DNA of 64,000 nt from a virus: IMG/VR virus record IMGVR_UViG_3300037137_001027, positions 64,001-128,000 of that record; one strand, given 5' to 3'. Positions 832 through 31,434 of the stretch are shown here, in pieces. Below the pieces are notes generated by a model that was not told where the DNA came from, ran no database searches, and saw only the letters and a program-made list of their open reading frames with translations. Within the stretch, counting starts at the first letter, position 1; each line of letters starts with the position of its first letter. A program made the position numbers and the translations under genes.

Positions 832-999
832 ATGTATCTTGTTCACGCAACCGCTCCCTTCCGTGGTGGTAACAAAGGCTGGGATTTCCGCGCTGATTAC
901 TTCCCGCGTAAAGTTCACTATAAGAAGGAAGCGCTCGCCCTGGCTCAAGAGGCTAAGGCCAAAGGCGCTACCAACGTCAAGCTAGAGAAGATCAAGTAA
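832..999 (+). CDS. hypothetical protein (55 aa, not in ORF track)
   Basis: GAGG RBS, MYLVHATAPF...; its stop is the TAA of the next motif. Confidence 0.7.
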   Translation: MYLVHATAPFRGGNKGWDFRADYFPRKVHYKKEALALAQEAKAKGATNVKLEKIK

Positions 1000-1021
1000 T
1001 TGAGGTTGTACTAAGCTGGGC

Positions 1022-1225
1022 ATGATAATCAAAACCACATCCCACCGATCAAGGGAAAAGCTAAAACAACTCCTGGGCTATATGCCCCAAGGTTATTTTA
1101 GCTTCTATAAGAACGGCGACTGGCGGGAAGTCCCCGATGATCGTTCGGAAGACGTTTTGAAAATCAAAGGTATCAGCCGTTCCAAACTGCCTGAAACAGC
1201 TAGACAATACATTGATTGGAGCTAA
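1022..1225 (+). CDS. hypothetical protein, probably leaderless
   Basis: ATG 9 nt after the motif core. Confidence 0.75.
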   Translation: MIIKTTSHRSREKLKQLLGYMPQGYFSFYKNGDWREVPDDRSEDVLKIKGISRSKLPETARQYIDWS

Positions 1226-1228
1226 GAA

Positions 1229-1483
1229 ATGGCTAACTGGCGTTATAAGATCGAATTGAACAAGGTTCTCACCGAAATGTCCGAGAAGCATGACCTCGAA
1301 CGACATGAGGCCCGCTGCCCAAAGGAAGTCAAGGAAGCTATCGCCAAGGAACTTGAAAAGGCTTGGCCGCTCAAGCGCTTCTGCGAAAAAATCCTTAATG
1401 CCAAGAGCATCGCCCAAGTCAATCGTATCTTGAAAAACGTCTGGAATGCCGCTGACCGTGAACTTGTCTGGTGCGGACTGTAA
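1229..1483 (+). CDS. hypothetical protein
   Basis: GGAG RBS, co-oriented ORF. Confidence 0.75.
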   Translation: MANWRYKIELNKVLTEMSEKHDLERHEARCPKEVKEAIAKELEKAWPLKRFCEKILNAKSIAQVNRILKNVWNAADRELVWCGL

Positions 1484-1518
1484 CTCCATTTGTTAATTGC
1501 GGTTGTACTAATCAGGAC

Positions 1519-1941
1519 ATGGAGAATAAAATGAAACTCAATGAACTTGAACAAAAAGCAGTCGATCATATCCGCCACAACGCTACTCGCTACGGCACCA
1601 GCGGCGGCGGTATGTTTGACAATCCCAAAACCCACGAAGATAAACGAACCCGCAAGCTGCTCGATAATGGCGTAATTCTCTACGTCGGCTGCGGCTCCCG
1701 CACTGAAAGCGGCTGGATGGGCGGCGCTGGCCTGATCCCCGCCGATATGTTTGATGCCACCAAACATACCAAACTGTCCGTCGATAGGGATTCCAGCCTG
1801 AAAGTGGTTGAACAAAAGTGTAATAATTCCCTGGCAATGGTCTATCACGTTGTCCTCGATGGCATCACCATTGCCGAATGCCGCGACCCTTATTGGGCAA
1901 ACTATCTGGCAAAGGCTATCAAGGGAAATCGCTACACCTGA
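1519..1941 (+). CDS. hypothetical protein (start 1519 or 1531)
   Basis: ORF behind motif 1494. Confidence 0.75.
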   Translation: MENKMKLNELEQKAVDHIRHNATRYGTSGGGMFDNPKTHEDKRTRKLLDNGVILYVGCGSRTESGWMGGAGLIPADMFDATKHTKLSVDRDSSLKVVEQKCNNSLAMVYHVVLDGITIAECRDPYWANYLAKAIKGNRYT

Positions 1942-1998
1942 TTTAGCCGAATCAAAGTAGCACACACACAAAAAGTTCTGCCCCACTACATAAAGAAT

Positions 1999-2235
1999 AT
2001 GTATTGGATTGCACGATTCGGACCAATTGAAGTAGGCAGAGTTACCACCATCCCTGGCAACCTGCCCTACTTCGTTACAATTAACGCCGTCGCCGTTAAA
2101 CAACTATGCAGCACCCCACTACCCGAAACAGCCTTTATTAAATCATTCAGTGATTTTTATGCTGCCGAAGCCTACGCAACGTCCTTCTTCCCACTGGATA
2201 CCCAACCATTCATCGAATGGACCCAATTTAATTGA
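1999..2235 (+). CDS. hypothetical protein
   Basis: ORF ending inside the next motif. Confidence 0.6.
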   Translation: MYWIARFGPIEVGRVTTIPGNLPYFVTINAVAVKQLCSTPLPETAFIKSFSDFYAAEAYATSFFPLDTQPFIEWTQFN

Positions 2236-2253
2236 GGTTGTACTAATCCCAAT

Positions 2254-2568
2254 ATGATTACTACAGCAAACGCTCTGGATGCACTGAAAGATAAATTCAT
2301 CACCGACTGGCGAATGAAACTCTGTCGGGATGATAACCTGAAATGGAAGTCCCCCGTCGTCACCAGCGATAAGGTTTCTGTGTCCAACGAAACCTATGGT
2401 AAGACTTCATACCTGTACTTCCATGCCAAAACCGCTGAATTGGCCAAAGAAATTGCGGCAACCCTCCGCACCATCGGCGGCAAACCCAACTTCGGCTGGT
2501 GCGCATCTGACCCCACTTGCTTCGATTTACAAGTGTCCCGCTTCAACGGCTACCACTGGTGGGAATAA
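2254..2568 (+). CDS. hypothetical protein, probably leaderless
   Basis: ATG 9 nt after the motif core. Confidence 0.8.
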   Translation: MITTANALDALKDKFITDWRMKLCRDDNLKWKSPVVTSDKVSVSNETYGKTSYLYFHAKTAELAKEIAATLRTIGGKPNFGWCASDPTCFDLQVSRFNGYHWWE

Positions 2569-3233
2569 TGAACTACAAAATCCTACTCGATGAAGCAAAA
2601 TTCGATGAATTTACTAACTTCCTCCCCGACCTGGAAGCCAACGAAGTCTATTACCTCTCCCTCTTCGCCCGACATAAATACTGTACCTCTGTCCCTAACA
2701 TAAAAGACAACCAACTCGCCCGCTTCACCAGCAGCAAAGAAACCCTGAAAGAACACATCCTTCGTCTGGAATGCTCCATCGGTGGCTATAAAAGAGAAGG
2801 AATTGACGTTCCCCAAGAAGCATTGGCGCTTTACATTGCCCTGAATCCCCGTAATATAGTTAAAGCAAATAAAGAACTTTTGGTCGAATTGGCTAAGTGC
2901 TTCGCGGAAGGAAAAGCCGATTTTAACCCGCTGTCCCTCGCCCGTACCGCTATCCACCACGCAACAAACCGTAAAGTCTTTGTAGACTTTGATTATGATT
3001 TTATCGCTCCAGAAACCCATTTGCCCAAAATTAAGGAAGTTTTACCAGATAACGCATTCAAAATCCTTAAAACAAGAGGCGGCTTCCACATCCTAGTCCT
3101 ACTCGCTAATGCTCCTAAAACCAACTGGTTCAAAGCACTAAGCAACCTAGAAGGCTGTGACGTTAAAGGTAGTAATACCCTTATTCCCGTCCCTGGCTGT
3201 ACCCAAGGCGGATTCACCCCTTACCTGGAGTAA
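2568..3233 (+). CDS. hypothetical protein with AEP/primase-like motifs
   Basis: VFVDFDYD and KTRGGFHIL resemble AEP motifs I and II. Confidence 0.45.
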   Translation: MNYKILLDEAKFDEFTNFLPDLEANEVYYLSLFARHKYCTSVPNIKDNQLARFTSSKETLKEHILRLECSIGGYKREGIDVPQEALALYIALNPRNIVKANKELLVELAKCFAEGKADFNPLSLARTAIHHATNRKVFVDFDYDFIAPETHLPKIKEVLPDNAFKILKTRGGFHILVLLANAPKTNWFKALSNLEGCDVKGSNTLIPVPGCTQGGFTPYLE

Positions 3234-3236
3234 AAT

Positions 3237-3575
3237 ATGCCGACGAATAACCCCACTGGTTACGAAACCTATGTCTACGATCATAGACAATACCCCCACG
3301 CCAACTATGATGGCGCTATCTACGAAAGTCGCCAACATGCCAACGCGCCGCTCCATGACCCGAAATCCCTCCCTAAACCTGAATGCGATAACGATTCCCT
3401 ACCCCGCGTCATGGTCGAACCATGCTACGCCAGCCGCTCCAACGATGTTTGGCTCTATTTCAGGGAAGGTCATAGCATCATGCTCCCCCGCATCATGGCC
3501 GAACAACTAAGAGATGCCCTAATCAAAGTCTGCGAGAAACCTAAACAAGAAAAAACAACATGGGAAACCCAATAA
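3237..3575 (+). CDS. hypothetical protein
   Basis: GGAG RBS; stop overlaps the motif. Confidence 0.7.
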   Translation: MPTNNPTGYETYVYDHRQYPHANYDGAIYESRQHANAPLHDPKSLPKPECDNDSLPRVMVEPCYASRSNDVWLYFREGHSIMLPRIMAEQLRDALIKVCEKPKQEKTTWETQ

Positions 3576-3597
3576 GTAAGGTTGTACTAATAACAAT

Positions 3598-3762
3598 ATG
3601 AACACCAAATACCCACTACTCGACGCCGAAGCAAAACGCATCGCCTCCGATACCTGCAAGGCTATTAACCTAGCCTCCCAAAACACCCAAGATGAAGGTA
3701 TGCCCTATAAGGCCCAATATATCTTGGAAGAGGTTATTAAAATCCTGAAGGAGAAGGTCTAA
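3598..3762 (+). CDS. hypothetical protein (54 aa), probably leaderless
   Basis: ATG 9 nt after the motif core; MNTKYPLLDAE. Confidence 0.7.
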   Translation: MNTKYPLLDAEAKRIASDTCKAINLASQNTQDEGMPYKAQYILEEVIKILKEKV

Positions 3763-3933
3763 ATGTCCCGTAAAGACGCAATCCGTGCGCTCGCCAAGGA
3801 TTTTATCAAATTCGTCACCAAAGAAGATGATAAAACTGGCGCACTCAACGCCTGGAACCTTAAACTCCAAGAAGACCTCGCAAAACAAATTAAATACGAA
3901 TTGGAAGAACAACTCCCCAAAGAAGACCTATGA
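3763..3933 (+). CDS. hypothetical protein (56 aa)
   Basis: GGAG/AAGG RBS; MSRKDAIRALAK. Confidence 0.65.
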   Translation: MSRKDAIRALAKDFIKFVTKEDDKTGALNAWNLKLQEDLAKQIKYELEEQLPKEDL

Positions 3934-3963
3934 TTAAACAATCGAGGTTGTACTAATCAAAAC

Positions 3964-4413
3964 ATGGACACCAACATCGCTGTATCACTGGCCCGCCAAC
4001 TAATGATCGACCACGGTTTGGGCCACTGGTCCTTTGAATTCGACCGCGCCAAACGCCGCGCTGGTTGCTGCAAACACCGTAGCTCAATAATTAGCCTGAG
4101 CTATGTCTACACCACCCGTAATAGCGAACCCGAAGTCAAAGATACCATCCTGCACGAAATTGCCCATGCCCTCGCTGGCCCAAAACAAGGCCACAATAAC
4201 GTCTGGAAAACTATCTGTCGCAGAATCGGCGCTAAACCCGTTCGCTGCTATAGCGCTGATACTGTCGATATGCCCAAAGGTCGCTGGAAAGCACAATGTA
4301 ATTCTTGTAAAAAGGAATTCCATGCCCACCGTCGCCCTAAAAACCACATGAATCGCTATTGTACCCGCTGTGGCCCCGTCAACGGCGCAATCACCTTCAA
4401 ACAAGGATACTAA
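3964..4413 (+). CDS. SprT-like zinc metalloprotease
   Basis: RRAGCC, DTILHEIAHAL, GHNNVWK and C-terminal CxxC...CxxC. Confidence 0.85.
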   Translation: MDTNIAVSLARQLMIDHGLGHWSFEFDRAKRRAGCCKHRSSIISLSYVYTTRNSEPEVKDTILHEIAHALAGPKQGHNNVWKTICRRIGAKPVRCYSADTVDMPKGRWKAQCNSCKKEFHAHRRPKNHMNRYCTRCGPVNGAITFKQGY

Positions 4414-4415
4414 AC

Positions 4416-4694
4416 ATGACCGAATCCATCTTCTTCACCGTTATTAACCCCCATACCGAAGAAGAAACCAGAATCAATATCTCTATTAACCCCGAAGAAA
4501 AAATCTTCGCGGTTAATAATATCCTAATCGACCCCCAACAACTGGCCGAACTAGGAATGCTCCTGTTCGCCCTGGCTAACCAACACGGTCAACCTGACCT
4601 GGACTCCTGCAACGAACTACTCTACGGCTTTGATATTCCACTCCCTATCAAGGCGCTCAAAGAGGTTATCGACATAGAAAAGGAAGTTGCATGA
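4416..4694 (+). CDS. hypothetical protein
   Basis: AAGGA RBS, co-oriented ORF. Confidence 0.7.
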   Translation: MTESIFFTVINPHTEEETRINISINPEEKIFAVNNILIDPQQLAELGMLLFALANQHGQPDLDSCNELLYGFDIPLPIKALKEVIDIEKEVA

Positions 4695-4891
4695 AATTCT
4701 TCGATCTTAAAATTCGTATTAGCTCCAATTACCAAACAGAAAAAGAGGTAATGGAGAAGTTTGGAGAATGGCTCGCTGCCACTAAAGGTATCAAAACCTC
4801 TCTTTGGCAAGGTAATTCCTGCATCGTTGAACTTGGCGTTACGCAACTGTCCGAAAAGAATGCGTCAATCGGAGCAAACCATGAAAATTGA
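4691..4891 (+). CDS. hypothetical protein
   Basis: ATGA coupling to the previous gene. Confidence 0.65.
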   Translation: MKFFDLKIRISSNYQTEKEVMEKFGEWLAATKGIKTSLWQGNSCIVELGVTQLSEKNASIGANHEN

Positions 4892-5294
4892 CCCACGCTT
4901 TAAGGATACTGAATTCGTTGTCGAAGCCGATTCCTTCGCCCGTCTTGCCCTGTGGGAACGCTTCTCCACCGAAGCACTACATAAAACCGAATTGAATACC
5001 ATTAACTGGCAACAAGACTCTATGGGAACCTGCTACCAAGTCGGCTCCCTAGATAATCGACCAGTTAATATCGACTTCGTTTGGGCCAAACTCAATAACC
5101 ATTTAATCCTCTTTTACCACGCCTGCTCCCAAGTAGTCGATCATAAAATGGTCGAAAATTGGATTGAAAAATACTGTAACCCCCAACATAACGAACGCCG
5201 CTCCCATTGTGATGCTAATAACTTCGCTCATGCTATTAGCTATATCTCCAACTTCGCTGGCTGGGAACCTACCGCTCCCGCCAGTAAAGCCTGA
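4881..5294 (+). CDS. hypothetical protein
   Basis: GGAG RBS before MKIDPRF. Confidence 0.75.
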   Translation: MKIDPRFKDTEFVVEADSFARLALWERFSTEALHKTELNTINWQQDSMGTCYQVGSLDNRPVNIDFVWAKLNNHLILFYHACSQVVDHKMVENWIEKYCNPQHNERRSHCDANNFAHAISYISNFAGWEPTAPASKA

Positions 5295-5544
5295 GACGCT
5301 CTAAATAATATCGGTAATCAAATAACCGATTATTAACCACCCTGTTATGACGCCGATATAACCAAAAATTAAAGTATGACACATCCTATCTATCACCAGC
5401 GGAATCTATTCACCTATCTATTCACCAATTTCCGCAAACCCCATGAAATCAAGCGTTTAGGGCAAAAGAATCTATTCATCTTGTCAGAAAAACACCCCCA
5501 CTTTCCTGACAAACCCAAAGAATTGCGGTTGTACTAATAGAAGC

Positions 5545-5805
5545 ATGAACACCAAACTTAAAACTGGCTCAATCATCCTGGTCCACGGCTGGATTATGAC
5601 CAAAGGACTAGACGGCGGGCAGAAATACCGCGTCCAATCAATGCCAGACCACCACGGCATCCCTACCTACCAGTTTACTAAGGCAAAAGGTAAGAAACTC
5701 GTCGCTCGACATTACATTGGCGATATTGATGTTTGGATTAGGACAAAAGATCATCCCGACCTGAACCGAATTGAAATACTTGACGCCACCCCACAAACAA
5801 AGTAA
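5545..5805 (+). CDS. hypothetical protein, probably leaderless
   Basis: ATG 9 nt after the motif core. Confidence 0.75.
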   Translation: MNTKLKTGSIILVHGWIMTKGLDGGQKYRVQSMPDHHGIPTYQFTKAKGKKLVARHYIGDIDVWIRTKDHPDLNRIEILDATPQTK

Positions 5806-5836
5806 AATCTCATACATACCATAAGAGGTGTAACCC

Positions 5837-6034
5837 ATGAATTTCAAAGTGCAACGCGCTGGACTCCAAGGCGATAAATGGCAAACTGTCTGCACCAACC
5901 CTAATCAGGATTATGCCGAAGAAATCTACCAGAAACAATTGGTCATGTACTCCATCGGGCGCTTCCGCCTCCTTGACCCCGATGATAAAGTAATCAAAGA
6001 AGGTAAAGCCGCTCCACTGTTCAGTAGGAACTAA
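5837..6034 (+). CDS. hypothetical protein
   Basis: GAGGTG RBS. Confidence 0.7.
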   Translation: MNFKVQRAGLQGDKWQTVCTNPNQDYAEEIYQKQLVMYSIGRFRLLDPDDKVIKEGKAAPLFSRN

Positions 6035-6196
6035 TCCCATGACCTGGACCTACAAAAATGTCACCGTCTTTCCCGCTCCCCTAAATGGCTCTGGCATTCG
6101 CTGGACCGCTAATTGTGGTGTCGGCTATTCGCTCCGTGCAGACTCAAAAAGTGAAATGCGAAAACTTATTAACGCCCTGCCAAATGAGGAATAAAC

Positions 6197-6448
6197 ATGA
6201 TCGAACTCCCTACCGAACTTACCGTAGAACAACTCGAAGTCACCTGGCTTAATATAAATGGACCTGTAAATGTTATAGCCAAACTTAGCCAGTGGATGTA
6301 TGAAAATAAATGCTCCCCTATCTGGGACTGCGCTGGCTCCGCTGGCCCCTGGTTTATTAAAATGGCCTTCCAACCAAATAAAGCTACCCAAGTCCTGGCC
6401 AAAATTAAGGAAATGATAGAGCAAAATAATGTAGTACCTAAGTCCTGA
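6197..6448 (+). CDS. hypothetical protein
   Basis: GAGGA RBS. Confidence 0.7.
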   Translation: MIELPTELTVEQLEVTWLNINGPVNVIAKLSQWMYENKCSPIWDCAGSAGPWFIKMAFQPNKATQVLAKIKEMIEQNNVVPKS

Positions 6449-7714
6449 ATAGGAAAGAACTTAGGAAGTCACCCACTTTTTCCCATTCCGACCCACTAAA
6501 TAAGGGGTCTAACCACTTTTCTATAGAGTTAATTTCTTATACTCCACGGAAAAGATTTCATAATCATAAACATAGTGTGCATATGCACTTATGGCGATGT
6601 GAAAAGATTTCAAATACACATAACGGTGTAATTAGAGGACAATTAGTTGTGTACTTTGTGATGCGGGCGTGTGTATAATGGGCATATAACGTGTGTATAA
6701 ATGCGCCTTATATGCGTGTCTAAATGGGCATATAAATGTGTGATGCGTGTATGTGATGCGTGTATGTGCGTCCACGCCCGCGTGAGGGGTAAGCCTAGAT
6801 GGGACAAGTTTTTTTGTTGGGTAAATTTTAGGAATTGAGGTTGTACTAATTGGAAGTGTTGGGAAAACAAATAAGCCAGGCAAAACTATGCCTGGCTTAT
6901 TTGACCCAAACCAAAAAGGTTTTTCGTGGTATCCACCACCTTATTTTTAACCCAAAATAAGGAAAGGGATTTATCTGATTTGCACCTGGAAGGTGTATTG
7001 TAGGCAAATTAGGATAGCAAGTTGTTTAGACTTGCTATCCTGTACCGCACAAGTGTCGCCCAGTCACTTGCTTGGTACTACTACTTTACACCAATAACCC
7101 CCAAAGTAAAGAAGAAAAAAAAGAATTCAAGAGTTCCACATCCAAGAGATACGCTGAACGGCCTCCATTTCTTTCCTCCAAATTATTATTTCCCCCAAGT
7201 GCATATGCAGCTTATGCTTATGCACAAAAGAATTTGATCTCTTGTGATGAGTGCGTGTTATGTGCGCTCGCGTGGGGGTGTAAGTGAGTTCGCGTGGCGG
7301 CTAGAAAATTATTTTCCCTAAGTCGTTATGGCTGTAGGGGAAGAAACTTGCGAAATAGTCGGACAAGTAAGGATTCTAGCCGTTAAGGTGGCTGCCTGAG
7401 TTCAGGAAATTTTGATTTATGGCACGTCCTGGTGGCTGCCTGAGTTCAGGAAATTTTGATTTATGGCACGTCCTGGTGGCTTGCCATAAGTGTTGTTGGC
7501 TGTAGGAGATAAGGGAGATGGGTGAATGGACAGTGGATACTGTTGGTGGGTTTGCTGGGGGTTGTTGGGGATGAGTGCCGAACTGGGGAATTTGAGGTTG
7601 TACTGAATTTTGGCATGGCGAAGCTACGAACACAGCTAAGGGGGTATACGGGTTATGACCAGCGACCATCCATTTTTGATTTTGGCTAAACTGTAGGAAA
7701 GTCTAGTTTGGCCA
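6449..7714. other. 1.3-kb non-coding region with hairpins, palindromes and tandem repeats; candidate replication origin or genome-end region
   Basis: No credible ORF; 15-bp inverted repeat at 6868-6903, 12-bp inverted repeat at 7011-7041, GTGCATATGCAC palindrome, TGTGATGCGTGTA repeats; C-rich to G-rich switch. Confidence 0.45.
7387..7481 (+). repeat. 44-bp tandem direct repeat (2 copies plus a partial third)
   Basis: GGTGGCTGCCTGAGTTCAGGAAATTTTGATTTATGGCACGTCCT at 7387 and 7431. Confidence 0.95.
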
Positions 7715-7768
7715 AATTGAGGTTGTACTAATTCGGTCGTGGCGAACCGAACTTTAGGGGGGATTGCA

Positions 7769-8152
7769 ATGGTTGCTTCACAGTGGGGTTGCGAGTGTCA
7801 GCGTTATTTCATTCAAACTGACGAGGTGAATAAGAAAGGAAACGCAAAAAGTATTCCCGTTGAGGTGCGGAAGATGCACATTCGCGGTTCGTTTCTTTTT
7901 ACCGATTATTTCCGCGTTGTCTTGGTCAAGCGGAAGGCGGGCAACATCTATTCGGTGAAGCAGCGAAAGAAGCCAGAGCGGGCATGGTGGGATAAGACGC
8001 CGATCAAGGATGAAGATTGCAAAATGGTGAAGGAGGGCAGCTATACACGCGAACAGTTTCTTGCGTGGTTGGTGCATTACGTTCCGAACCCGATGGGGGC
8101 TTGCGTGGAACTGGAAACTTGTCCACCTGATGTGGAGGTGGCGGCGGCTTAA
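7769..8152 (+). CDS. hypothetical protein (ends EVAAA)
   Basis: GGGGGA RBS behind motif 7715. Confidence 0.75.
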   Translation: MVASQWGCECQRYFIQTDEVNKKGNAKSIPVEVRKMHIRGSFLFTDYFRVVLVKRKAGNIYSVKQRKKPERAWWDKTPIKDEDCKMVKEGSYTREQFLAWLVHYVPNPMGACVELETCPPDVEVAAA

Positions 8153-8282
8153 TTTTGTCTAAGAATTCCCTTACCAATCCCGTTATTTGGGGTAAAGTAG
8201 GGGAGTTCTAGTTTAGGCAAGAATTGAGGTTGTACTAAACCTAGCACAAGGGAATTCACTCAAACCAAGAAAGAGGTGGACT

Positions 8283-9311: not shown

Positions 9312-9317
9312 GGCTAT

Positions 9318-9354: not shown

Positions 9355-9390
9355 GTCTTATAGGTTTATAGAGGTTGTACTAAACCTATC

Positions 9391-23060: not shown

Positions 23061-23154
23061 TTAGGGGTGGGCAGGGGACCGCAAACCCTGCCTTTTTTTA
23101 TCCTCTAATTAAGGTTGTACTAATTGTGGTATAACCCTAACCCTGGAGGCGACA

Positions 23155-23373
23155 ATGATCTGGTGCATCACCGCGACGATTGAAAAGAAAACGAAAGACG
23201 GCGTGCAGACGAGTCAAATTCCCACGTTCTTCCTCGATGGCCGCGTGCAAGGTATCATGAACGAGGGACACGCGAAGTTCATCGGCGCTGAAATTATCAA
23301 CCCCATGCGGCTGAAAAATATCACGCTGCATGTGAGCGCCATCGCCGCTGACCGCGAAGTATGGGCAGCGTAA
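23155..23373 (+). CDS. hypothetical protein (ends VWAA)
   Basis: Full cassette. Confidence 0.8.
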   Translation: MIWCITATIEKKTKDGVQTSQIPTFFLDGRVQGIMNEGHAKFIGAEIINPMRLKNITLHVSAIAADREVWAA

Positions 23374-23450
23374 AGGGAAGGGAGCGCCCACTCCCATTAT
23401 ACCCTAATTGGGGTTGTACTAATTGGTGTATAACCCTAACGGAGAAAGCT

Positions 23451-23627
23451 ATGAAGATCATCGCAGCGTATCACAAGGACAGTCGCAAGAATTTGACCCC
23501 CGAACAAATCCAGGCCGATATGCCTGCCCTGGAGAAAGAACACAAGAAAGCGCTGGCAGCAGAAGCAACGTGGCAATTCTTCGGCGGCATCATCGTCATC
23601 GGGGAACACGAATACCAAGTCTGCTAA
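23451..23627 (+). CDS. hypothetical protein
   Basis: Full cassette. Confidence 0.72.
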   Translation: MKIIAAYHKDSRKNLTPEQIQADMPALEKEHKKALAAEATWQFFGGIIVIGEHEYQVC

Positions 23628-23706
23628 GGGAAGGGAGCGCCCACTCCCATTATACCCTAATTGGGGTTGTACTAATTGGTGTATAACCCTAACACTGGAG
23701 GCTGTC

Positions 23707-23913
23707 ATGCGGTTTGAAGTGTGCATCAAGTACGGCAATCGCTGGAGCTACAAGGGCATTTACAGCGCTAACACATCACGCGCTGCTGCCCTGGACGCAA
23801 GCTATTCGTGGAACCGCAAGGTTATCCGCGTGCGGCCCGAAGATAGCCGCGACAAGTGGCTTGTGTATCGCTTCCAGTACGTCGGCACGCTAACCTCGTC
23901 CAGCGGAGTCTAA
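23707..23913 (+). CDS. hypothetical protein
   Basis: Full cassette. Confidence 0.78.
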   Translation: MRFEVCIKYGNRWSYKGIYSANTSRAAALDASYSWNRKVIRVRPEDSRDKWLVYRFQYVGTLTSSSGV

Positions 23914-23998
23914 GGGGAAGGGAGCGCCCACTCCCTAATCATCCCTTAATTGAGGTTGTACTAAATCAGGTGTAGCAACAACCCCAACGGAGAAAGCC

Positions 23999-24184
23999 AT
24001 GACTCGGAAAGATTACGAATTGTTCGCCAAGATGCTGCGGGAAGTCCCCAGCGCGGCCAAGCGGCTCGACTTCGCGGCGGAACTGGTCAAGGTGTTCGCT
24101 GCCGATAACGAACGCTTCAACGAGGCGACGTTCCGCAATGCGGCGGATTGCAAGGTATCAAGGAAGGGGGAATACGCCAGCTAG
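23999..24184 (+). CDS. hypothetical protein
   Basis: MTRKDYELFA...DNERFN; full cassette. Confidence 0.78.
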   Translation: MTRKDYELFAKMLREVPSAAKRLDFAAELVKVFAADNERFNEATFRNAADCKVSRKGEYAS

Positions 24185-24271
24185 GGCAAGGGAGCGCCCA
24201 CTCCCATTATCCCCTAATTGGGGTTGTACTAAATCAGGTGTAGCGAACATCACCCCTTTCTGGAGGCTACC

Positions 24272-24478
24272 ATGATCGTCTGTGACACGCCTGACAAAAT
24301 CGAAGCGTTTCGTCTGCTGGCGCTTCGTGGCGCTCTCAAGCTCGAATGCAAGGGCTTGCGGCGCAAGGGCCAATCGGTCGCCACTCTCGTCAAGCGGGAA
24401 TTCTCCCTGCGTGGCACCAATCAGCAAGTATTGGACCAATTCGAGGCTCTTTTGCAGGAAAGGTGGATTCTTGTCTAA
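24272..24478 (+). CDS. hypothetical protein
   Basis: Full cassette. Confidence 0.78.
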   Translation: MIVCDTPDKIEAFRLLALRGALKLECKGLRRKGQSVATLVKREFSLRGTNQQVLDQFEALLQERWILV

Positions 24479-24567
24479 GGGAAACGGGGAGGGACCGCTA
24501 ACCTCCCCAATCATCCCTTAATTAAGGTTGTACTAATTGGTGTATAACCTAACCCCTGGAGGCTGTC

Positions 24568-24828
24568 ATGAAAATCGTATCTATGTTCCAGACCTGTGAC
24601 GGCAAGACGTTCACGGACAAGAACGAGGCTCAACGCCATGAAAACGAGCATGAGGCGCTCGCCAAACTTCGCAGCTTACTGAATTCCGCAATTCAGTCGG
24701 AACTGACGCGGCGCGGCAACATCGACAACATCCTCCACAGTATCCTGATGGAGAGCGCGGAAGTCCGCAACATCCTCATCACCTACAACAAGAAGATGCC
24801 AAAGGAAGCGGCAAAGGTCGCCGCATAG
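24568..24828 (+). CDS. hypothetical protein (ends KVAA)
   Basis: FQTCDGKTF; full cassette. Confidence 0.8.
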   Translation: MKIVSMFQTCDGKTFTDKNEAQRHENEHEALAKLRSLLNSAIQSELTRRGNIDNILHSILMESAEVRNILITYNKKMPKEAAKVAA

Positions 24829-24916
24829 GGCAAGGGAGCGCCCACTCCCATTATCCCCTAATTGGGGTTGTACTAAATCAGGTGTAGCGAACATCACCCC
24901 TTTCTGGAGAAGTGCC

Positions 24917-25231
24917 ATGACGAATCGCATCACTGCTGCCGTTGCCCGCATGGAAAAGCAAATTGCTGACCGTATCGCCAAGGGCTTGACAACGCAAGCC
25001 AAAGTCGATGCGCTGCACGCGCATCTCGACCTCGACATTCTGGAACACGCCAAGTTTCAGGAATACAAGTCGCTGGCCTACACCGAGGGCAAACTGACCC
25101 TCGATGAATCGCAGTCGCTGTACAACTTGCTGGGCAATACCGCCAGCACGTTCAACCGCCAACCCATCGCCGTCAAGTCCGTTCTCACCTCGCTGTTCGC
25201 GGAACTGCTCAAGATGCGCATGGCAAGCTAA
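24917..25231 (+). CDS. hypothetical protein
   Basis: Full cassette. Confidence 0.8.
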   Translation: MTNRITAAVARMEKQIADRIAKGLTTQAKVDALHAHLDLDILEHAKFQEYKSLAYTEGKLTLDESQSLYNLLGNTASTFNRQPIAVKSVLTSLFAELLKMRMAS

Positions 25232-25328
25232 GGGGAAGGGCAGGGGAACGCCAACCCTGCCCCTTTTATCCTCTAATTGAGGTTGTACTAATCTAGGTGT
25301 AGCGAGAACTCCTTACTGGAGAAACGCG

Positions 25329-25586
25329 ATGATCGCTGAATACGCGCTGGACAATCTGCTGGTTGGCCAAAAGGACCGCATCCTTGGCCTCTGCAATGCG
25401 GAGAAGTATGAGGAGGCGCTCTTGCTGCTCGACTTCACGGAGGAGATGTGGGCGGCTTGTCAGTACGCTTACAAAACGCGGGAAATACGCGACCGCATCC
25501 GCCGCGACCTAAACGAAAACGTCTGGAATGCGGAACACTGGAAACAGAAAGAGAAGTGGCAAAAGTTGCTCGTTACGGTGCCGTAA
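25329..25586 (+). CDS. hypothetical protein
   Basis: Full cassette. Confidence 0.78.
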   Translation: MIAEYALDNLLVGQKDRILGLCNAEKYEEALLLLDFTEEMWAACQYAYKTREIRDRIRRDLNENVWNAEHWKQKEKWQKLLVTVP

Positions 25587-25673
25587 AGGGAAGGGAGCGC
25601 CCACTCCCTAATTAACCTCTAATTGAGGTTGTACTAATTACAGTGTAGCGACAACCCCAACTGGAGAAGTGCC

Positions 25674-25865
25674 ATGATGAATCATCTCTACGGTGAGAAG
25701 CTGGTTGACGGCAAGACGGTCACGCTGGATCACGCGGTACAGGAATTCACCGTCGTCATTCGTTCGTGCAGCGGGATTCACCCGCAAACGCTGAAAGACC
25801 TCATCGAGCGCAAGTTCGAGGTCGTCAGCATCAAGGCGGGCGAAAGCAAAGAGTACGTCAGCTAA
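25674..25865 (+). CDS. hypothetical protein
   Basis: Full cassette. Confidence 0.75.
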   Translation: MMNHLYGEKLVDGKTVTLDHAVQEFTVVIRSCSGIHPQTLKDLIERKFEVVSIKAGESKEYVS

Positions 25866-25941
25866 AGGGAGCGCCCACTCCCATTATACCCTAATTGGGG
25901 TTGTACTAATTGGAGTATAACCCTAACCCCTGGAGGCAATC

Positions 25942-26199
25942 ATGGCGACTCGATTCATCATCAAGACGGACAATCCCGAAGGCATTCCCAGCACTTGGGA
26001 AATGAGCGATTTCGAGATGAAGCACGGCTTGAACGTCAACGAGGTGGACAAGCTGTATGTGACGTTCAAGGTGAAGAAGCGCCGCAAGATCAAACGGCTG
26101 CGCATCAACGTGAAAGTGCATCCTTGCGAGTTATGCGGTTCGCACGCATACGCAAGCGGCAGCGTCGGCAGCAAGGAATTCGACAAGGAACTTTACTAA
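25942..26199 (+). CDS. hypothetical protein
   Basis: Full cassette; CELCGSH. Confidence 0.78.
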   Translation: MATRFIIKTDNPEGIPSTWEMSDFEMKHGLNVNEVDKLYVTFKVKKRRKIKRLRINVKVHPCELCGSHAYASGSVGSKEFDKELY

Positions 26200-26287
26200 G
26201 GGGAGGGCAGGGGAATGCAAACCCTGCCAATCATCCTCTAATTAAGGTTGTACTAATTGTGGTATAACCCTAACACTGGAGGCGGTC

Positions 26288-26476
26288 ATGAAGGTTTGCG
26301 AGCGATGCGGCTGCGAGATTGCCACGAAGGACGGGGACAACCTTTGCCGCGATTGCGACGAAGGCAAGAAGAAGCGGGACAAGCGGAATGCGTCCCGCAA
26401 AGCCCGCGAGGATGCGCTCCGCTCCATTGGTCTGGTCAAAGTCAAGGGCGCTCTTGGTGGAACGTATTGGGAATAA
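26288..26476 (+). CDS. zinc-finger protein
   Basis: CERC...CRDC. Confidence 0.78.
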   Translation: MKVCERCGCEIATKDGDNLCRDCDEGKKKRDKRNASRKAREDALRSIGLVKVKGALGGTYWE

Positions 26477-26570
26477 GGGTAGGGGAGGACCGCAAACTCC
26501 CTAATTAACCTCTAATTGAGGTTGTACTAAATCAGGTGTAGCGAACATCACCCCTTTCTGGAGAAGTGCC

Positions 26571-26846
26571 ATGAAGCTGCAAAACGTCACCGTCGTCATC
26601 CTGGCCCGCGTCGAGAACAACGGCCTCAAGGTGGCCAGCGTCATCGACAATCCCGAAGTGCCGTCCAGCGGCGGCAAGCCCGTCATCGGCCCGCTGATGC
26701 GGCGGCTCATGTCGGTCAAGGAGGTCGTCGCGCGGACGGGACTGAGCAAGGGCAAGGCCGCTGATGCGCGGCGGCTCAACCCAATGACCTACCTGGCCGA
26801 CTTCGAGGGGCAATCGCCACTGGCGTTGTCGCTCCAGGCCGCGTAA
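26571..26846 (+). CDS. hypothetical protein (ends LQAA)
   Basis: Full cassette. Confidence 0.78.
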   Translation: MKLQNVTVVILARVENNGLKVASVIDNPEVPSSGGKPVIGPLMRRLMSVKEVVARTGLSKGKAADARRLNPMTYLADFEGQSPLALSLQAA

Positions 26847-26992
26847 CAATAAGGCGGTCGCTGCGGCAAGGTCGATCAGTCCACCCGTGGGACCGCAGGG
26901 CAGGGGGGGAACCCCTGCCTTTTTTGTTATCATCCCGTAATTAAGGTTGTACTAATTTGTGTGTAGCCAACAACCCCTTACGGAGAACTGCG

Positions 26993-27193
26993 ATGCGACA
27001 CTACATCAGTCGGCAGAAGGCGCAGAGCTACGGCGGATTCATCTACTACCAGTGCAAGCGCGGCAAGTACATGCTGGTGAACTACCACGGCGAAACGATG
27101 TGGATGGGATACGTCCAGCCCCACGGCTTCTACGTCGTTCCCTTCGACCACGCCAGGGGCCAGAGCGAACAACTCAAAGACATGGTAGCATAA
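26993..27193 (+). CDS. hypothetical protein
   Basis: Full cassette. Confidence 0.75.
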   Translation: MRHYISRQKAQSYGGFIYYQCKRGKYMLVNYHGETMWMGYVQPHGFYVVPFDHARGQSEQLKDMVA

Positions 27194-27300
27194 CGTTAGG
27201 GGTGAGGCAGGGGACCGCAACCCTGCCTTTTTTCAATCATCCTCTAATTGAGGTTGTACTAATCTAGGTGTAGCGAACATCACCCCTTTCTGGAGCAATC

Positions 27301-27573
27301 ATGCTGACCAACACTTGCAAGCCCCGCTTTGCTACGCTGAATCTCACGATGGAACAGCGGTTGCAGCGCTGTGCCACGCCCATGACCAAGTTCACCCTGT
27401 TCAACGCACTAACGGGCCGCGCCATCAAGGGCGGCAGCACCATCAGCATCAACGGGATTCCGTGCATTCTCTCCAGCATTCAGAGAGAGGACGGAAGCGG
27501 CAGCAGCTTCAACCTCATCGTCTACGGCCCCGACAACCAGCCATACAAATGCTACTGCCGCACAACGGACTAA
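27301..27573 (+). CDS. hypothetical protein
   Basis: SIQREDGSGSSFN; full cassette. Confidence 0.78.
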   Translation: MLTNTCKPRFATLNLTMEQRLQRCATPMTKFTLFNALTGRAIKGGSTISINGIPCILSSIQREDGSGSSFNLIVYGPDNQPYKCYCRTTD

Positions 27574-27643
27574 GGGGAAGGGAGCGCCCACTCCCATTTA
27601 CAAGATCATTGCGGTTGTACTAAATAGAGTAAGGAGGACAATC

Positions 27644-27829
27644 ATGCACCAGACAACCGCAATCCGCCGCAACGACAAGGGCTTTATCATCAAGCTCGGT
27701 CCCGCGCCCGAACGCGGCAACCTGTTCCGCATTGCGGATCAGATCGGTATGGCCGCTGCTACTGACAAGCGCCAGCATCGCCGCCGTACCAAGGCCGCAC
27801 GCAAGGCCCGCCGCTGGAAAGCGGAGTAA
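27644..27829 (+). CDS. small basic protein
   Basis: AAGGAGG RBS; Arg-rich C-terminus. Confidence 0.72.
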   Translation: MHQTTAIRRNDKGFIIKLGPAPERGNLFRIADQIGMAAATDKRQHRRRTKAARKARRWKAE

Positions 27830-27922
27830 CAACAAGGGAGCGCCCACTCCCTAATGAGCCTCTAATTGAGGTTGTACTGATCGAGGTGTAGGACGAGTCA
27901 ACCCCTTTCAAGGAGCCATCGC

Positions 27923-28168
27923 ATGAACGCTCTGGTACAGGTCGGCGTCGGTGAGGTCATCGCGTCCCGCAAGCTGACTGGTGGCGGCATCCTGGTGCAG
28001 CGGCTTTGCTGCTCTTGCAAGCACGCTTTCTGGTCGGCCTACAACGAACACAAGAGCGCGTGTGCCGATTGCGACCCGCCCGCCAAGCGGCCCGAATCGC
28101 GGGGTATCGGTCGCAACCTCGACCGCAAGGCGAGCGACCGCCAATATCACGGTAGCAACGTGGAGTAA
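27923..28168 (+). CDS. zinc-ribbon protein
   Basis: CCSC...CADC. Confidence 0.75.
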   Translation: MNALVQVGVGEVIASRKLTGGGILVQRLCCSCKHAFWSAYNEHKSACADCDPPAKRPESRGIGRNLDRKASDRQYHGSNVE

Positions 28169-28275
28169 CGCGGGGAAGGGCAGGGACCACAACCCTGCCT
28201 TTTCCTAATGAACCTCTAATTGAGGTTGTACTAATCAGGGTGTAGGACGAGTCAACCCTTAACCTGGAGACGACG

Positions 28276-28500
28276 ATGCACGATCACGGTTACACTCCCC
28301 CGCTCCCGTCCACCCGCGACGAACTGATCCGCGACACGAAGGCCGCGCTGAAGATGCTGAAGATGCTCCGCGACTTCGGCGTTGACCTCCGCGACAAGAA
28401 GATCATGGCGATCAAGCACCTCCGCACGCAGACGGGCCTCGGCCTCCGCGAAGCGAAGGAAGCCGTCGAGTTCGGCATGGAGTTGCTGGACGCAGCGTAA
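28276..28500 (+). CDS. ribosomal protein bL12 (L7/L12) C-terminal-domain-like protein
   Basis: KKIMAIKHLRTQTGLGLREAKEAVE matches the L7/L12 CTD signature KI.xIK.VR..TGLGLKEAK..VE. Confidence 0.75.
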   Translation: MHDHGYTPPLPSTRDELIRDTKAALKMLKMLRDFGVDLRDKKIMAIKHLRTQTGLGLREAKEAVEFGMELLDAA

Positions 28501-28612
28501 CACGTTAGGGGAGGGGCAGGGGAACGCCACCCTGCCCTTTTTATCATTACAGTATCATTGAGGTTGTACTAATTGGGGTGTAGGACGAGTCAACCCCTTG
28601 CGGAGAACTGCG

Positions 28613-28927
28613 ATGCATACCACCGACTCCATCCGCGACCTCCTCACCCGCAACCCCAAGGCCGTTTACAGGGCGCTTGTCGTCCTGTTTGAGCGGCAGA
28701 CGGACGATGAGAAGGAGAGCGAGGAAACCAAGCACGACAACGGGCGCGGCTTCAATTACCGCGATGCCAAGTTCGGTTCCGACTTGGCGCAGAAGTGCAT
28801 CCGCCCCGACCCGCGCTACCCTTCCCCGCTCTCCGTCAATCAGCTTGCTGCGGCCCGCCGTATGCTGCACAAGTACGCTGGCCAGCTTGCCCGCATTGCC
28901 AACGGGCAGGAAACGGTCGAGGTATGA
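28613..28927 (+). CDS. conserved-looking phage hypothetical protein
   Basis: RALVVLFERQTDDE...NGRGFNYRDA...LSVNQ...KYAGQL. Confidence 0.8.
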   Translation: MHTTDSIRDLLTRNPKAVYRALVVLFERQTDDEKESEETKHDNGRGFNYRDAKFGSDLAQKCIRPDPRYPSPLSVNQLAAARRMLHKYAGQLARIANGQETVEV

Positions 28928-28934
28928 CCAAACG

Positions 28935-28959
28935 ACCCGCCCGCAAGGGCGGGTTTTTT
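28935..28959 (+). terminator. intrinsic terminator
   Basis: ACCCGCCC-GCAA-GGGCGGGT-TTTTT. Confidence 0.85.
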
Positions 28960-28976
28960 ATTACCAATTTAGTTCC

Positions 28977-28993
28977 AGTACAACCTCATTTAA
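28977..28993 (-). promoter_or_regulatory. single inverted copy of the array motif
   Basis: Reverse complement reads TTAAATGAGGTTGTACT. Confidence 0.7.
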
Positions 28994-29277
28994 TGCCAAT
29001 TTATACTGTACAAACTAGCGCCATGCCTGGAATGCGATTAAATCGCTTTTAAGCCACTCTAACCCTAAAACCGACCCGACATAGCCTTGACCCATTTGCG
29101 CTCGTCTCAAGCGATCCTGGCGCGATTACGGGCCATTTGAACCTCGAACCTCGACCGACTTTTGCGCCGTTCCATTCGCCTATGGTACGCTGGTATATGG
29201 CACCGTGCTAATGGTACTCTAATTGAGGTTGTACTAAATCAGGTGTAGCGAAGATCACCCCTTTCTGGAGTACGACG

Positions 29278-29493
29278 ATGCCGCGTTGCGAAGATTACCC
29301 CTGCTGTGGCCATGAGGCGGGTTGCTGCCCGAACTACGACCGCACTGGCAAGCAGACCGACATGGTTTGCACCTGCGGCGCTCGCCTGCCGATCACGGCG
29401 CGCTACTCCATCTGCGAGACGTGCCTCCGTGACGACGACGACGACGGCCCCGACTATCGGGGCGACGACTGGCAGGAGGTGGACGAATACTAG
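29278..29493 (+). CDS. Cys-rich hypothetical protein
   Basis: RCEDYPCCGH...CTCG...CETC. Confidence 0.78.
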   Translation: MPRCEDYPCCGHEAGCCPNYDRTGKQTDMVCTCGARLPITARYSICETCLRDDDDDGPDYRGDDWQEVDEY

Positions 29494-29598
29494 GGGAAGG
29501 GCAGGGGAACGCCACCCTGCCCTTTTTTGTTATTAACCTCTAATTGAGGTTGTACTAAATCAGGTGTAGCGAACATCACCCCTTTCTGGAGTACGACG

Positions 29599-29955
29599 AT
29601 GGGAACCCGCCTCTACCCGAACACCACCGACCGCGCGGCCCTGGAAGTTCTCGCTGGCGTTCCCGCTGGCACACACGCCCGCATGGACGAAATGGCCAAG
29701 CGGCACGCCGAGGCGAAGGTTGACCCCTTCGACCAGGAGGCGGGTTACGCGCAGTGGAAGGAGCGCAACGACGACGGGCCGATTGGCGACCTCGACGCCT
29801 TCCTCACCTTCGGCTGGGGCAAGTTCCGCCCCGTGGACGGGATCGGGGAGGACTGCGCGGGCCATGAGGACAACCTCGACCGCGCGGCTCGCCTGTTGCG
29901 GGCGAACGGGATCGGTGCGAACGTGGCAATGACGGGGGGATTGCACTGGGGCTAG
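29599..29955 (+). CDS. hypothetical protein
   Basis: Full cassette. Confidence 0.8.
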   Translation: MGTRLYPNTTDRAALEVLAGVPAGTHARMDEMAKRHAEAKVDPFDQEAGYAQWKERNDDGPIGDLDAFLTFGWGKFRPVDGIGEDCAGHEDNLDRAARLLRANGIGANVAMTGGLHWG

Positions 29956-30053
29956 GGGAAGGGCAGGGGAACGCCAACCCTGCCTAATTAACCTCTAATT
30001 GAGGTTGTACTAATTACAGTGTAGGACGGATCACCCCTTACGGAGTCTGACCC

Positions 30054-30281
30054 ATGTTCGCACTGTACGTTGACAACGGCACTGGTGAACTCAGCCGCGC
30101 AGTCTTCACGCTGGAAGAGATGCGCAACTACAGTGGACCTCGGCCCACTTACCTCCGCATTGGCGAGAGCGGGGAGCGCGTTTCGTGGGATACGTTCAAG
30201 GCCATTTGCGCGACGTGTCGGCCCGACGACGCGGACGACGACCCCGACAACCTCTTCGTCTATCGCAGCGACGACAACTAG
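30054..30281 (+). CDS. hypothetical protein
   Basis: Full cassette. Confidence 0.75.
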   Translation: MFALYVDNGTGELSRAVFTLEEMRNYSGPRPTYLRIGESGERVSWDTFKAICATCRPDDADDDPDNLFVYRSDDN

Positions 30282-30371
30282 GGGAAGGGAGCGCCCACTC
30301 CCTAATTAACCTCTAATTGAGGTTGTACTAATTGGGGTGTAGGACGAGTCAACCCCTTACGGAGTACGATC

Positions 30372-30827
30372 ATGGAAGCCGCACTGAAGCTGACCGATGC
30401 CAAGCCCGTCCGCAAGCCCCGCACGGCCCGCAAGGTCAAGCCCGTCGCCGCCGCGATGAAGCCCGATCACCTCCAAGCCTACGCCACCGTGGGCGTCATG
30501 TTCATGGCCGTTCTGTCCGCGCTGCTGAACGGCTACGCGAACGCGGCGAGCGCCGAGGTTGCGTGGGCAGGCTGGGGTATGGGCTTGGCCGTTCCCGTTA
30601 TCATCTTGCTCTTGGGCAAGGTTGCGGGGTTGCTCTACAAGCGCGGGCAGAAGCGCGCTGCCCTTGCTACTGCCAGCGCTGGCATTGGCTTGCTCGCGCT
30701 GTCCGTTTGGCACGTTAGCCTTTCCATCGCCGCCTTGACGGGAAGCCCGATCATGCTGGCAATGCCAATGGCGGTTGCAATCGACTGCGGTTTCGTCTGC
30801 TGCGAGGTAGCGGCCTTGCTCGACTAG
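30372..30827 (+). CDS. integral membrane protein, about 4 TM helices
   Basis: Basic N-terminus followed by four hydrophobic segments. Confidence 0.78.
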   Translation: MEAALKLTDAKPVRKPRTARKVKPVAAAMKPDHLQAYATVGVMFMAVLSALLNGYANAASAEVAWAGWGMGLAVPVIILLLGKVAGLLYKRGQKRAALATASAGIGLLALSVWHVSLSIAALTGSPIMLAMPMAVAIDCGFVCCEVAALLD

Positions 30828-30937
30828 GGCAAGGCAAGGGCAGGGGAACGCCAACCCTGCCCTTTTTGCTAATGATCCTCTAATTGAGGTTGTACTAAAT
30901 CAGGTGAGGACGAGTCACCCCTTTCTGGAGACGAACG

Positions 30938-31051
30938 ATGAACTACGCTTACTTGCGGCTCGCGGCTTGGATGAAGATGATGCAAGGGGGCGAGCGGCGG
31001 CGGTGGGCGCGGGTCTGCAACTACCTTGACGCGAGGATGATGCGCTCTTGA
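30938..31051 (+). CDS. 37-aa peptide
   Basis: Full cassette with GGAG RBS. Confidence 0.6.
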   Translation: MNYAYLRLAAWMKMMQGGERRRWARVCNYLDARMMRS

Positions 31052-31434
31052 CCAAGGGCAGGGGAACGCCAACCCTGCCTAATTAACCTCTAATTGAGGT
31101 TGTACTGAATGGGGTAGGAGGATACCCCTGGGCATCGCCCATGCCCATTGAATTGTTATTAAGGTTGTACTAACATAATTAACATATGATTAATTAATTT
31201 CATTTTCTGTTTAAAAAAGTAACATCAGGGTGCCTACCGTGGACGCCATACCAGTGAGTTCTTTAAAAAAGTCAATTTCAAAATTAGCCGCCAGGGATTT
31301 TTCAAAATTCCACACATATCTTAAAAAAACTAATTTTTCCATTTTCCAAAAAATATACCAATCCAAAAAATTACCATTAGTAAAGTTTTGAAAAAATCTA
31401 CAATGGATTTTTCAAAACTTTACTATATTAAGGT

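Follow-up and report, generated by a model that had tools for sequence, protein, structure and literature searches.

A TGTAC motif with a predicted fixed start point as a putative promoter class of non-structural genes in huge phages

Among described phage promoters, those of the phiEco32 factor gp36 appear to be the nearest mechanistic analogue of the element considered here, a 19-base motif that recurs along a 64,000-nucleotide stretch of viral DNA (bases 64,001-128,000 of the 159,507-bp IMG/VR virus record IMGVR_UViG_3300037137_001027, hereafter G000). This whole stretch is called the window, and genome positions are those of the record. The gp36 promoters, which are middle/late promoters of this coliphage, carry one conserved element, tAATGTAtA, have no -35 consensus, are used by the host core enzyme and start transcription 6-8 bp downstream (PMC8948821). 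Relatives of phiEco32 show a changed consensus at conserved genome positions (PMC8948821). The cryo-electron microscopy complex of gp36 has T at -12 and G at -11 (PMC12276001). In T4-type phages, modules of a terminator hairpin and an early promoter, known as PeSLs (promoter early stem-loops), are found between small unrelated open reading frames (ORFs) (PMC2839356, PMC4122927). The transcripts of phages AR9 and phiKZ have leaders of at least 26 nt (PMC5312081, PMC8244752). A published account of the motif, or of huge-phage promoters, was not found in searchable papers, and a literature search with the motif as a string returned only primers. Leaderless middle and late transcripts from -10-type promoters are known from the Thermus phage phiYS40, the host of which commonly uses leaderless mRNAs.

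Comparison of G000 with its relatives leads us to propose, as a reading that is probable as a whole, that the motif serves the non-structural (early or middle) half of the phage as its principal promoter, with a fixed start point, and that it is read by the multisubunit core polymerase of the host under the direction of a phage-encoded specificity factor (a sigma-family protein or a sigma partner). The motif is very likely a promoter, +1 is quite likely the purine located 10 nt past the last T of GTACT, the use of the host core enzyme is likely, and we lean only slightly towards a phage-encoded reader. Initiation at this purine would place TGTAC at -15..-11, TAAT at -10..-7 and TAATTGAG at -25..-18. 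One start point would then yield three kinds of transcript, namely leaderless mRNAs with AUG at +1 (16 units), mRNAs beginning with a Shine-Dalgarno (SD) sequence (about 13) and mRNAs with shared leaders of 24-34 nt. Since each lineage has its own flanks around TGTAC, the specificity factor would have co-evolved with the motif.

The best protein matches of the window are in W01 (LR756511.1), the complete 595,163-bp genome of an uncultured phage (rIIA 59.6% identical, a baseplate-region protein 42%), and the early genes, the cassette array and the structural genes of G000 and W01 are syntenic. On the basis of these matches and this synteny, G000, which originates from a sediment sample, is a huge-phage fragment; the full genome is estimated at ~0.5-0.6 Mb, only part of which is contained in the record. 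Two further relatives were compared: G001, which shares 76-90% nucleotide identity with G000 and keeps the motif and the unit build, and G002 (341 kb), whose RNA ligase is 82% identical to its G000 counterpart. G001 was the useful match in an exact-pattern scan of viral contigs, the remaining matches being mostly single and due to chance. The same kind of scan of metagenomes gave one small related contig, L146, among the matches listed, and a near-identity search of the window in a phage collection gave no match.

Copies, layout and predicted start point of the motif

The core of the motif, GTTGTACT, has 70 copies in the window (69 on the + strand), compared with a mean of 1.47 copies (maximum 6) in the shuffled window. 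The whole 159.5-kb record contains 97 copies on the + strand and 3 on the - strand (genome 11.8-97.4 kb), and the copies are co-oriented with the genes. The full motif, TAATTGaGGTTGTACTAAt, has 19 bases, with a logo that forms a single contiguous block (T-A-A-T-T-G-a-G-G-T-T-G-T-A-C-T-A-A-t). The core copy at 33449, which lies inside a gene and has no flanks, and the - strand copy at 28977 are probably due to chance. A reading of the window from its sequence only had placed the motif at 997-31116; this range is slightly narrow, with more copies at 25 and 31164 and the first member of the class at genome 11,861, which is 52 kb before the window begins.

Genome-wide, an ATG is located exactly 9 nt after GTACT in 16 of the 97 copies (binomial P = 2.6e-13), whereas any other offset from 8 to 28 has an ATG in at most 3 copies. 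The ORFs opened by these ATGs encode 54-366 aa and are without an SD sequence, and a TGA within the motif is in frame with them, which makes an ORF start further upstream impossible. All nine ATGs quoted in the sequence-only reading as lying at this distance with no SD sequence do so (Table 1), and one further unit (7739) has GTG in place of ATG. The pyrimidine|purine (Y|R) step reported at the same position in other units was recovered in 93% of copies versus 0-15% at neighbouring offsets, with A (58% of copies) or G (37%) as the predicted +1 nucleotide. The three exceptions named in that reading are real as well: copy 6840 has G|T at the predicted start, and copies 7597 and 10247 have the Y|R step one base further on, as is the ATG of 7597. 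In 12-13 further units the predicted transcript has an SD sequence at its 5' end, with GGAG 1-2 nt past the inferred start (+2/+3). Given this +1, the predicted leaders have either 0 nt or at least 10 nt, mostly 24-34 nt. From the fixed ATG offset, the missing SD sequence, the in-frame TGA and the conserved N-termini we infer that the first group of mRNAs is leaderless. The N-terminus of the RNA ligase, MKTIDY, is encoded from a putatively leaderless ATG in G000 and from an SD-led ATG in W01 and G002, and its match to the SD-led orthologues identifies the G000 ATG as the true start.

Counted from the predicted +1, GTTGTACT occupies -17..-10 and TAATT -25..-21, as the sequence-only reading had proposed, and this geometry recurs in three lineages and is kept in orthologues. 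Its description of one contiguous block with no -35 hexamer is also in line with our analysis: in the 53 copies outside the dense array no conserved sequence was found upstream of the motif, the -35 region included, and the information content from -57 to -26 is zero. Scans with sigma70 consensus sequences gave 17 matches versus 17.1 expected and 17 versus 13.8 expected, with no overall enrichment of strong matches. Positions -12..-7 read ACTAAT, with C at -11 in 97/97 copies, and the sole GG of the motif, at -18/-17, has A/T 10 bp downstream. The earlier statement that the motif fits neither sigma70 nor sigma54 therefore stands with respect to the -12..-7 sequence and the absent GG-N10-GC, but it overlooked the sigma-like features of the predicted layout, which are TG at -15/-14 in all copies, where a canonical extended -10 element has it, TAAT at -10..-7 in G000 and the Y|R step. 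In G000, TAAT is followed by a G-rich discriminator, and the 6 nt between the end of the block (-7) and +1 are variable. Reading TTGAGG as a -35 element together with TATAAC of one leader family (family A) as a -10 element was rejected, since the other leader families do not fit it and the leaderless ATGs would come to lie upstream of the start.

The relatives carry diverged versions of the motif. G002, in which the motif with its altered flanks reads cTAATTGCAATTGTACCA, contains 84 copies of ctAATTGCAATTGTACCA, with an ATG at the G000 offset in 13 of them and a Y|R step in 86%. The W01 motif, (TTATAA)AGCTGTAC, has about 130 copies with ATG peaks at offsets 16-18; 55 copies in an array of its own read TTATAAAGCTGTACTwAA, and about 75 copies of A-GCTGTAC are dispersed over 20-300 kb without the TATA-like part. 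Between the three dialects, GGTTGTACTAA (G000), AATTGTACCA (G002) and AGCTGTAC (W01), nothing but TGTAC (-15..-11) and the distance to the start is invariant, and -10..-7 is not TAAT outside G000 (CCAn; wAAa in G002, W01). For five G000 genes predicted to be leaderless, the orthologue in G002 (54-77% identity) is predicted to be leaderless too, behind the dialect of that lineage. Of the orthologue pairs, 21 have the motif upstream of both members, 14 upstream of only one and 30 upstream of none (Fisher P = 1e-5). A per-column identity profile between G000 and G001 was weakly informative because paralogous junctions cross-match. The motif and its geometry are thus confirmed and found across a clade.

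Terminators, cassettes and sequence context

Strong intrinsic terminators stand directly before several motifs (Table 1), and behind them the motif is the only conserved element. A gene in such a position, for example that with ATG at 9391 and no SD sequence, needs its own promoter. In the dense array each unit is built of a hairpin, the motif, a leader and one small ORF. The hairpins are GGGAGCGCCCACTCCC or CAGGG..CCCTG, some with T-runs, the leaders fall into three families, (A/G)TA(A/G)C..GGAG, and hairpin, promoter and leader family are combined in a mix-and-match manner among the units. Counting hairpins of -12 kcal/mol or lower in the 60 nt before the motif, 34 of the 43 units in the dense array have one versus 31% of control windows. 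No similarity was detected among the 84 ORFs behind the motif copies of the record (blastp, E < 1e-5), all of which are singletons, and hence the conserved junctions are not a residue of whole-unit duplication. The array differs between G000 and G001 in unit gain, loss and order. In our model, hairpins or terminators and promoter would together form PeSL-like regulatory cassettes around unrelated small genes.

Several further features of these units were observed. Immediately ahead of the motif at 9666 is a tRNA-like 3' end (GGTTCAATTCCC..., window 9524-9659), and the array contains a tRNA-Glu(TTC) (window 13186-13258), which indicates that small RNA genes occupy cassette positions as protein genes do. 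The TAA of the TAATTG sequence of the motif is a possible stop codon of the preceding ORF in about 21 units; in these units the putative promoter overlaps the end of the upstream gene with no terminator between. The G+C content climbs steadily from 0.43 to 0.59 along the transcription direction of the motif-bearing region (window 1-32000; whole record) and drops abruptly to 0.39 where the structural genes of G000 begin. The G002 and W01 arrays likewise have a higher G+C content than the rest of their genomes.

Table 1. Positions of motif-associated features in the window (units are named by their predicted class).
Feature	Position	Strand	Remarks
Co-oriented units with core GTTGTACT (68)	25..31171	+
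Representative full motif TAATTGAGGTTGTACTAAT	15347..15365	+	-25..-7 if +1 = 15372; after hairpin 15317-15338, directly before RNA ligase gene
Predicted leaderless unit	1022..1225	+	67 aa, ATG at predicted +1; upstream ORF stops in motif TAA
Predicted leaderless unit	1519..1941	+	140 aa
Predicted leaderless unit	2254..2568	+	104 aa
Predicted leaderless unit	3598..3762	+	54 aa; G002 orthologue also predicted leaderless, behind AATTGTACC
Predicted leaderless unit	3964..4413	+	149 aa
Predicted leaderless unit	5545..5805	+	86 aa; G002 orthologue also predicted leaderless
Predicted leaderless unit	9391..9564	+	57 aa, behind terminator 9319..9346
Predicted leaderless RNA ligase gene (PF09511)	15372..16472	+	366 aa, ATG 9 nt past GTACT
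Predicted leaderless unit	16924..17100	+	58 aa
Predicted 5'-terminal SD unit	12863..13122	+	motif, C|AGGAGG at predicted +1 (12888), ATG 12901, 73 aa
Strong intrinsic terminator	9319..9346	+	12-bp stem and T7 run; directly before motif 9366-9384
Further strong terminators (hairpin and T-run)	12456-12484, 16476-16506, 18116-18140		directly before motifs
Units with upstream ORF stop in motif TAA (examples)	1005, 3581, 11662, 12031, 15355
Dense array	16527..31106	+	about 43 units of 200-570 bp

Candidate readers of the motif and alternative explanations

Profile searches for RNA polymerase subunits beta (PF00562) and beta' (PF00623) gave no match in W01, G000 and G001, although very divergent subunits could escape such searches, and no DxDGD-type signature was found in the ORFs of at least 250 aa of the same three sequences. 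The T7-type polymerase family (PF00940) had no match in G000 and only a chance-level one in W01 (E = 0.03, 11 bits). W01 contains no candidate for a giant virion polymerase and no ORF over 1640 aa; its largest ORFs encode the tape measure protein, an intein-bearing ribonucleotide reductase, DnaE and two proteins of about 1050 aa without a family. The large subunit of this reductase (W01 444,162-448,055) is split by intein(s) with LAGLIDADG homing endonuclease domains. AsiA (PF09010) was absent.

Sigma-like genes were found in the relatives. W01 has four of them, encoding two gp55-type proteins (PHROG 234) and two others, one of 165 aa with regions 2 and 4 and one of 333 aa with region 2, so that the phage sigma factor of the sequence-only reading is plausible, whereas its alternative of a virion or other phage polymerase is unlikely, as none of the families was found. 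The search for sigma or polymerase subunits which that reading had suggested thus returned sigma-like genes from relatives and no polymerase subunits. The paralogous gp55-type genes, which have region 2 only, are located at 400.7 kb and 464.3 kb in W01 and at 66.2 kb and 135.8 kb in G002. The W01 sigmas had no tblastn match in G000 and G001 and matched only the two gp55-like genes in G002. The two gp55-type factors could serve two single-block promoter classes. The gene for the 165-aa sigma is preceded by a sigma70-like promoter of the extended -10 kind, an arrangement consistent with an immediate-early regulator. No usable relatives were obtained among the loci related to the 333-aa and 165-aa sigmas, and none of the 266 loci related to the W01 gp55-like sigma has the motif nearby, so that no co-occurrence link between sigma and motif emerged.

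Other types of predicted promoter are also present in G000. At genome 9945-9992, which is 54 kb before the window begins, GGAGGA and ATG come after a near-consensus sigma70 promoter (TTTACA-N16-TATAAT). The first + strand operon, which this promoter heads, is without the TGTAC motif and encodes a 129-aa Zn-ribbon protein, an RmlC epimerase and a possible glycosyltransferase, with no recognisable transcription factor; it may be an immediate-early unit transcribed by the host polymerase in unmodified form. This promoter suggests that the host enzyme probably reads ordinary promoters and that the motif is a separate class. Conserved structural ORFs of G000 and W01 show an enrichment of the sequence ATAAATA(A) in their upstream regions, and these sites look like T4-late-type promoters that would also give leaderless mRNAs, which fits the gp55-like sigmas of the relatives. 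The pattern shows a putative signal other than the TGTAC motif at the structural genes. Outside the motif class, ATAAATA-N5-ATG is seen at window 50110-50124 (+) before the tape-measure gene (1840 aa) and at window 45763-45777 before a 152-aa ORF.

An A or G start after a pyrimidine, TG at -15/-14 and TAAT at -10..-7 are in keeping with a sigma-type reader on a bacterial core enzyme, and we regard the element as a deviant sigma-type -10 region rather than a wholly foreign one. The same features, with TG exactly at -15/-14 and the G-rich discriminator directly after TAAT, would also suit the host housekeeping sigma holoenzyme alone at an unusual extended -10 promoter, the extra conservation coming from recombination between cassettes; the first-expressed genes need an enzyme that is present at injection, and more than 100 units carry the motif, the 333-aa sigma gene of the relative included. 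We consider this explanation unlikely. C at -11 in all copies, the missing -35 element and the loss of TAAT in the other lineages argue against an ordinary host sigma: sigma70 needs T at -12 and above all A at -11, where the motif has A and C, and with CCAn or wAAa in place of TAAT only TGTAC is invariant. The near-consensus promoter at 9945 makes it probable that the host consensus is an ordinary one of the TTGACA/TATAAT type, and the flanks change together in every copy of a lineage, as they would with a co-evolving reader, although different hosts are also an explanation. Transcription by a phage-encoded polymerase, packed in the virion or not, that is unrecognisable by profile search appears improbable. 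It would account for the contiguous block of ~19 bp, which resembles the promoters of single-subunit polymerases, and could be encoded by one of the two W01 ORFs of about 1050 aa or in the part of the G000 genome that the incomplete record leaves out; yet W01 has none of the polymerase families, the signature or the giant ORF sought above, the block ends at -7 rather than at +1, a purine start after a pyrimidine is a habit of multisubunit enzymes, and the four sigma-like genes of the relatives make sense only with a host core.

Two further explanations dispense with a promoter. If the motif were an RNA processing signal, read-through transcripts would be cut 9-10 nt past it to give leaderless and SD-first mRNAs, as might be imagined for the about 20 units in which the previous ORF stops in the motif TAA without an intervening terminator and for the many array hairpins that lack a U-run and could protect 3' ends. 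Such processing is very improbable given that the strong terminators directly before several motifs would leave the motif untranscribed there, that the first motif-bearing units come after operon ends, that the motif itself lacks a conserved RNA structure, and that a Y|R step with a purine at +1 is a signature of initiation; the spacing between core and start is also sigma-like. A DNA recombination site for cassette capture or shuffling, integron-like or PeSL-like and with no role in expression, would explain why unrelated ORFs share their junctions and why unit gain, loss and order differ between G000 and G001. It is hardly credible as the function of a motif that also precedes large conserved genes (rIIA, RNA ligases, the NadE region) over 85 kb, and over 290 kb in W01, and for which the exact distance to an ATG or SD sequence would be meaningless; no integrase or recombinase was seen beside the array, and homologous recombination between promoters is likely a by-product, as in PeSLs (PMC2839356, PMC4122927). 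An archaeal TATA/BRE reading, prompted by TTATAAA in the W01 array, the Y|R initiator and the leaderless mRNAs, was rejected in view of the bacterial sigmas, GGAGG sequences, intrinsic terminators and the dispersed W01 copies without the TATA-like part.

Several observations weigh against a fixed-start promoter read by the host core with a phage factor. The unit at 9666..9688 (+) is the sole poor fit to a fixed start, as it has AGGAGG between the core and the predicted +1, that is, an SD sequence upstream of the start, and an ATG 3 nt past +1. The TGTAC box would lie ~3 nt farther from +1 than the TGTA of gp36 promoters (PMC12276001). No sigma gene was found in the 159.5-kb G000 record, and no sigma gene of W01 is linked to the motif: the 333-aa sigma gene is itself preceded by it, the region 4 of the 165-aa sigma would lead one to expect a -35 element, and the gp55-like sigmas probably serve the ATAAATA late promoters of the structural genes. 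In the sparse part of the region hairpins precede 7 of 28 units and are no commoner than in the control, so that read-through transcription surely also occurs. The public sequencing runs that contain the sequence are of sediment DNA only, with no RNA run among them, and the case for promoter function and for +1 is a comparative one.

A more far-reaching version of the proposal, which we offer only tentatively, is that a clade of ~0.5-Mb phages possesses a private orthogonal code for its non-structural genes, made up of a TGTAC box, a sigma-like phage factor (possibly delivered with the virion) acting on the host core enzyme and co-evolving dialects, with a start so fixed that leaderless, SD-first and long-leader gene starts are interchangeable. 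If true, this would represent a new class of promoter and sigma factor in which the element lies unusually far from the start. Huge phages are known almost only from metagenomes, and a predictable start would allow correct annotation of gene starts, since SD-based gene callers miss or mis-start leaderless genes. The motif would also define an early/middle regulon comprising about half of a 600-kb genome and predict the existence of a specificity factor, and the diverged promoter dialects could serve as orthogonal expression parts.

Comparison with known promoter systems

The predicted promoters differ from the canonical types in several respects. Unlike sigma70 promoters, they have no -35 hexamer and no TAnnnT with A at -11, and unlike sigma54 promoters they have no GG (-24) and GC (-12) 10 bp apart. 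With T7-type promoters they share a contiguous block (about 19-23 bp) that is near-identical within a genome and differs between related phages. However, T7-type promoters extend from -17 to +6 and start with G, whereas the block described here stops at -7, with a variable 6-nt discriminator after it, and a cognate polymerase gene was not found in the complete relative W01. In contrast to phages with phiKZ/AR9-type promoters, no phage beta/beta'-like genes were matched in G000, G001 and W01. Like those of phiYS40, the promoters seem to be positioned so that the mRNA starts at AUG, but other G000 units use strong GGAGG Shine-Dalgarno sequences.

T4 late promoters (TATAAATA), which depend on gp55, gp33 and the gp45 clamp, are likewise single-block elements with no -35 region, and gp55 is a small sigma with region 2 only. 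Relatives of the G000 phage encode two proteins of this type. The T4 late type fits the ATAAATA-N5-ATG sites of the structural genes far better than the TGTAC class, and since TGTAC heads non-structural genes, it is probably not the gp55 class. The array resembles PeSLs in that hairpin-promoter modules, likely substrates for homologous recombination, are repeated between fast-changing small ORFs in plastic regions. PeSL promoters are ordinary sigma70 early promoters, whereas those proposed here are non-canonical single blocks; leaders belong to the shared parts here as well, and with about 43 units in 15 kb the array is much larger. A cassette design of PeSL type, as in T4-like phages, would thus extend to huge phages, with different promoter chemistry.

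The gp36 promoters of phiEco32 share with the TGTAC class a single, strongly conserved block of some 9 bp near -10 that contains TGTA, the lack of a -35 hexamer, the probable use of the host core polymerase and a fixed short distance to the start, and in both groups the consensus varies among related phages at conserved positions. Homologues of gp36 or gp79 were neither sought nor found. Unlike in gp36 promoters, TG would be placed at -15/-14 and transcription would start 10 nt past TGTAC (6 nt past TAAT in G000). The G000 block also extends to -25, its copies number about 100 compared with six in phiEco32, and many of the predicted transcripts are leaderless.

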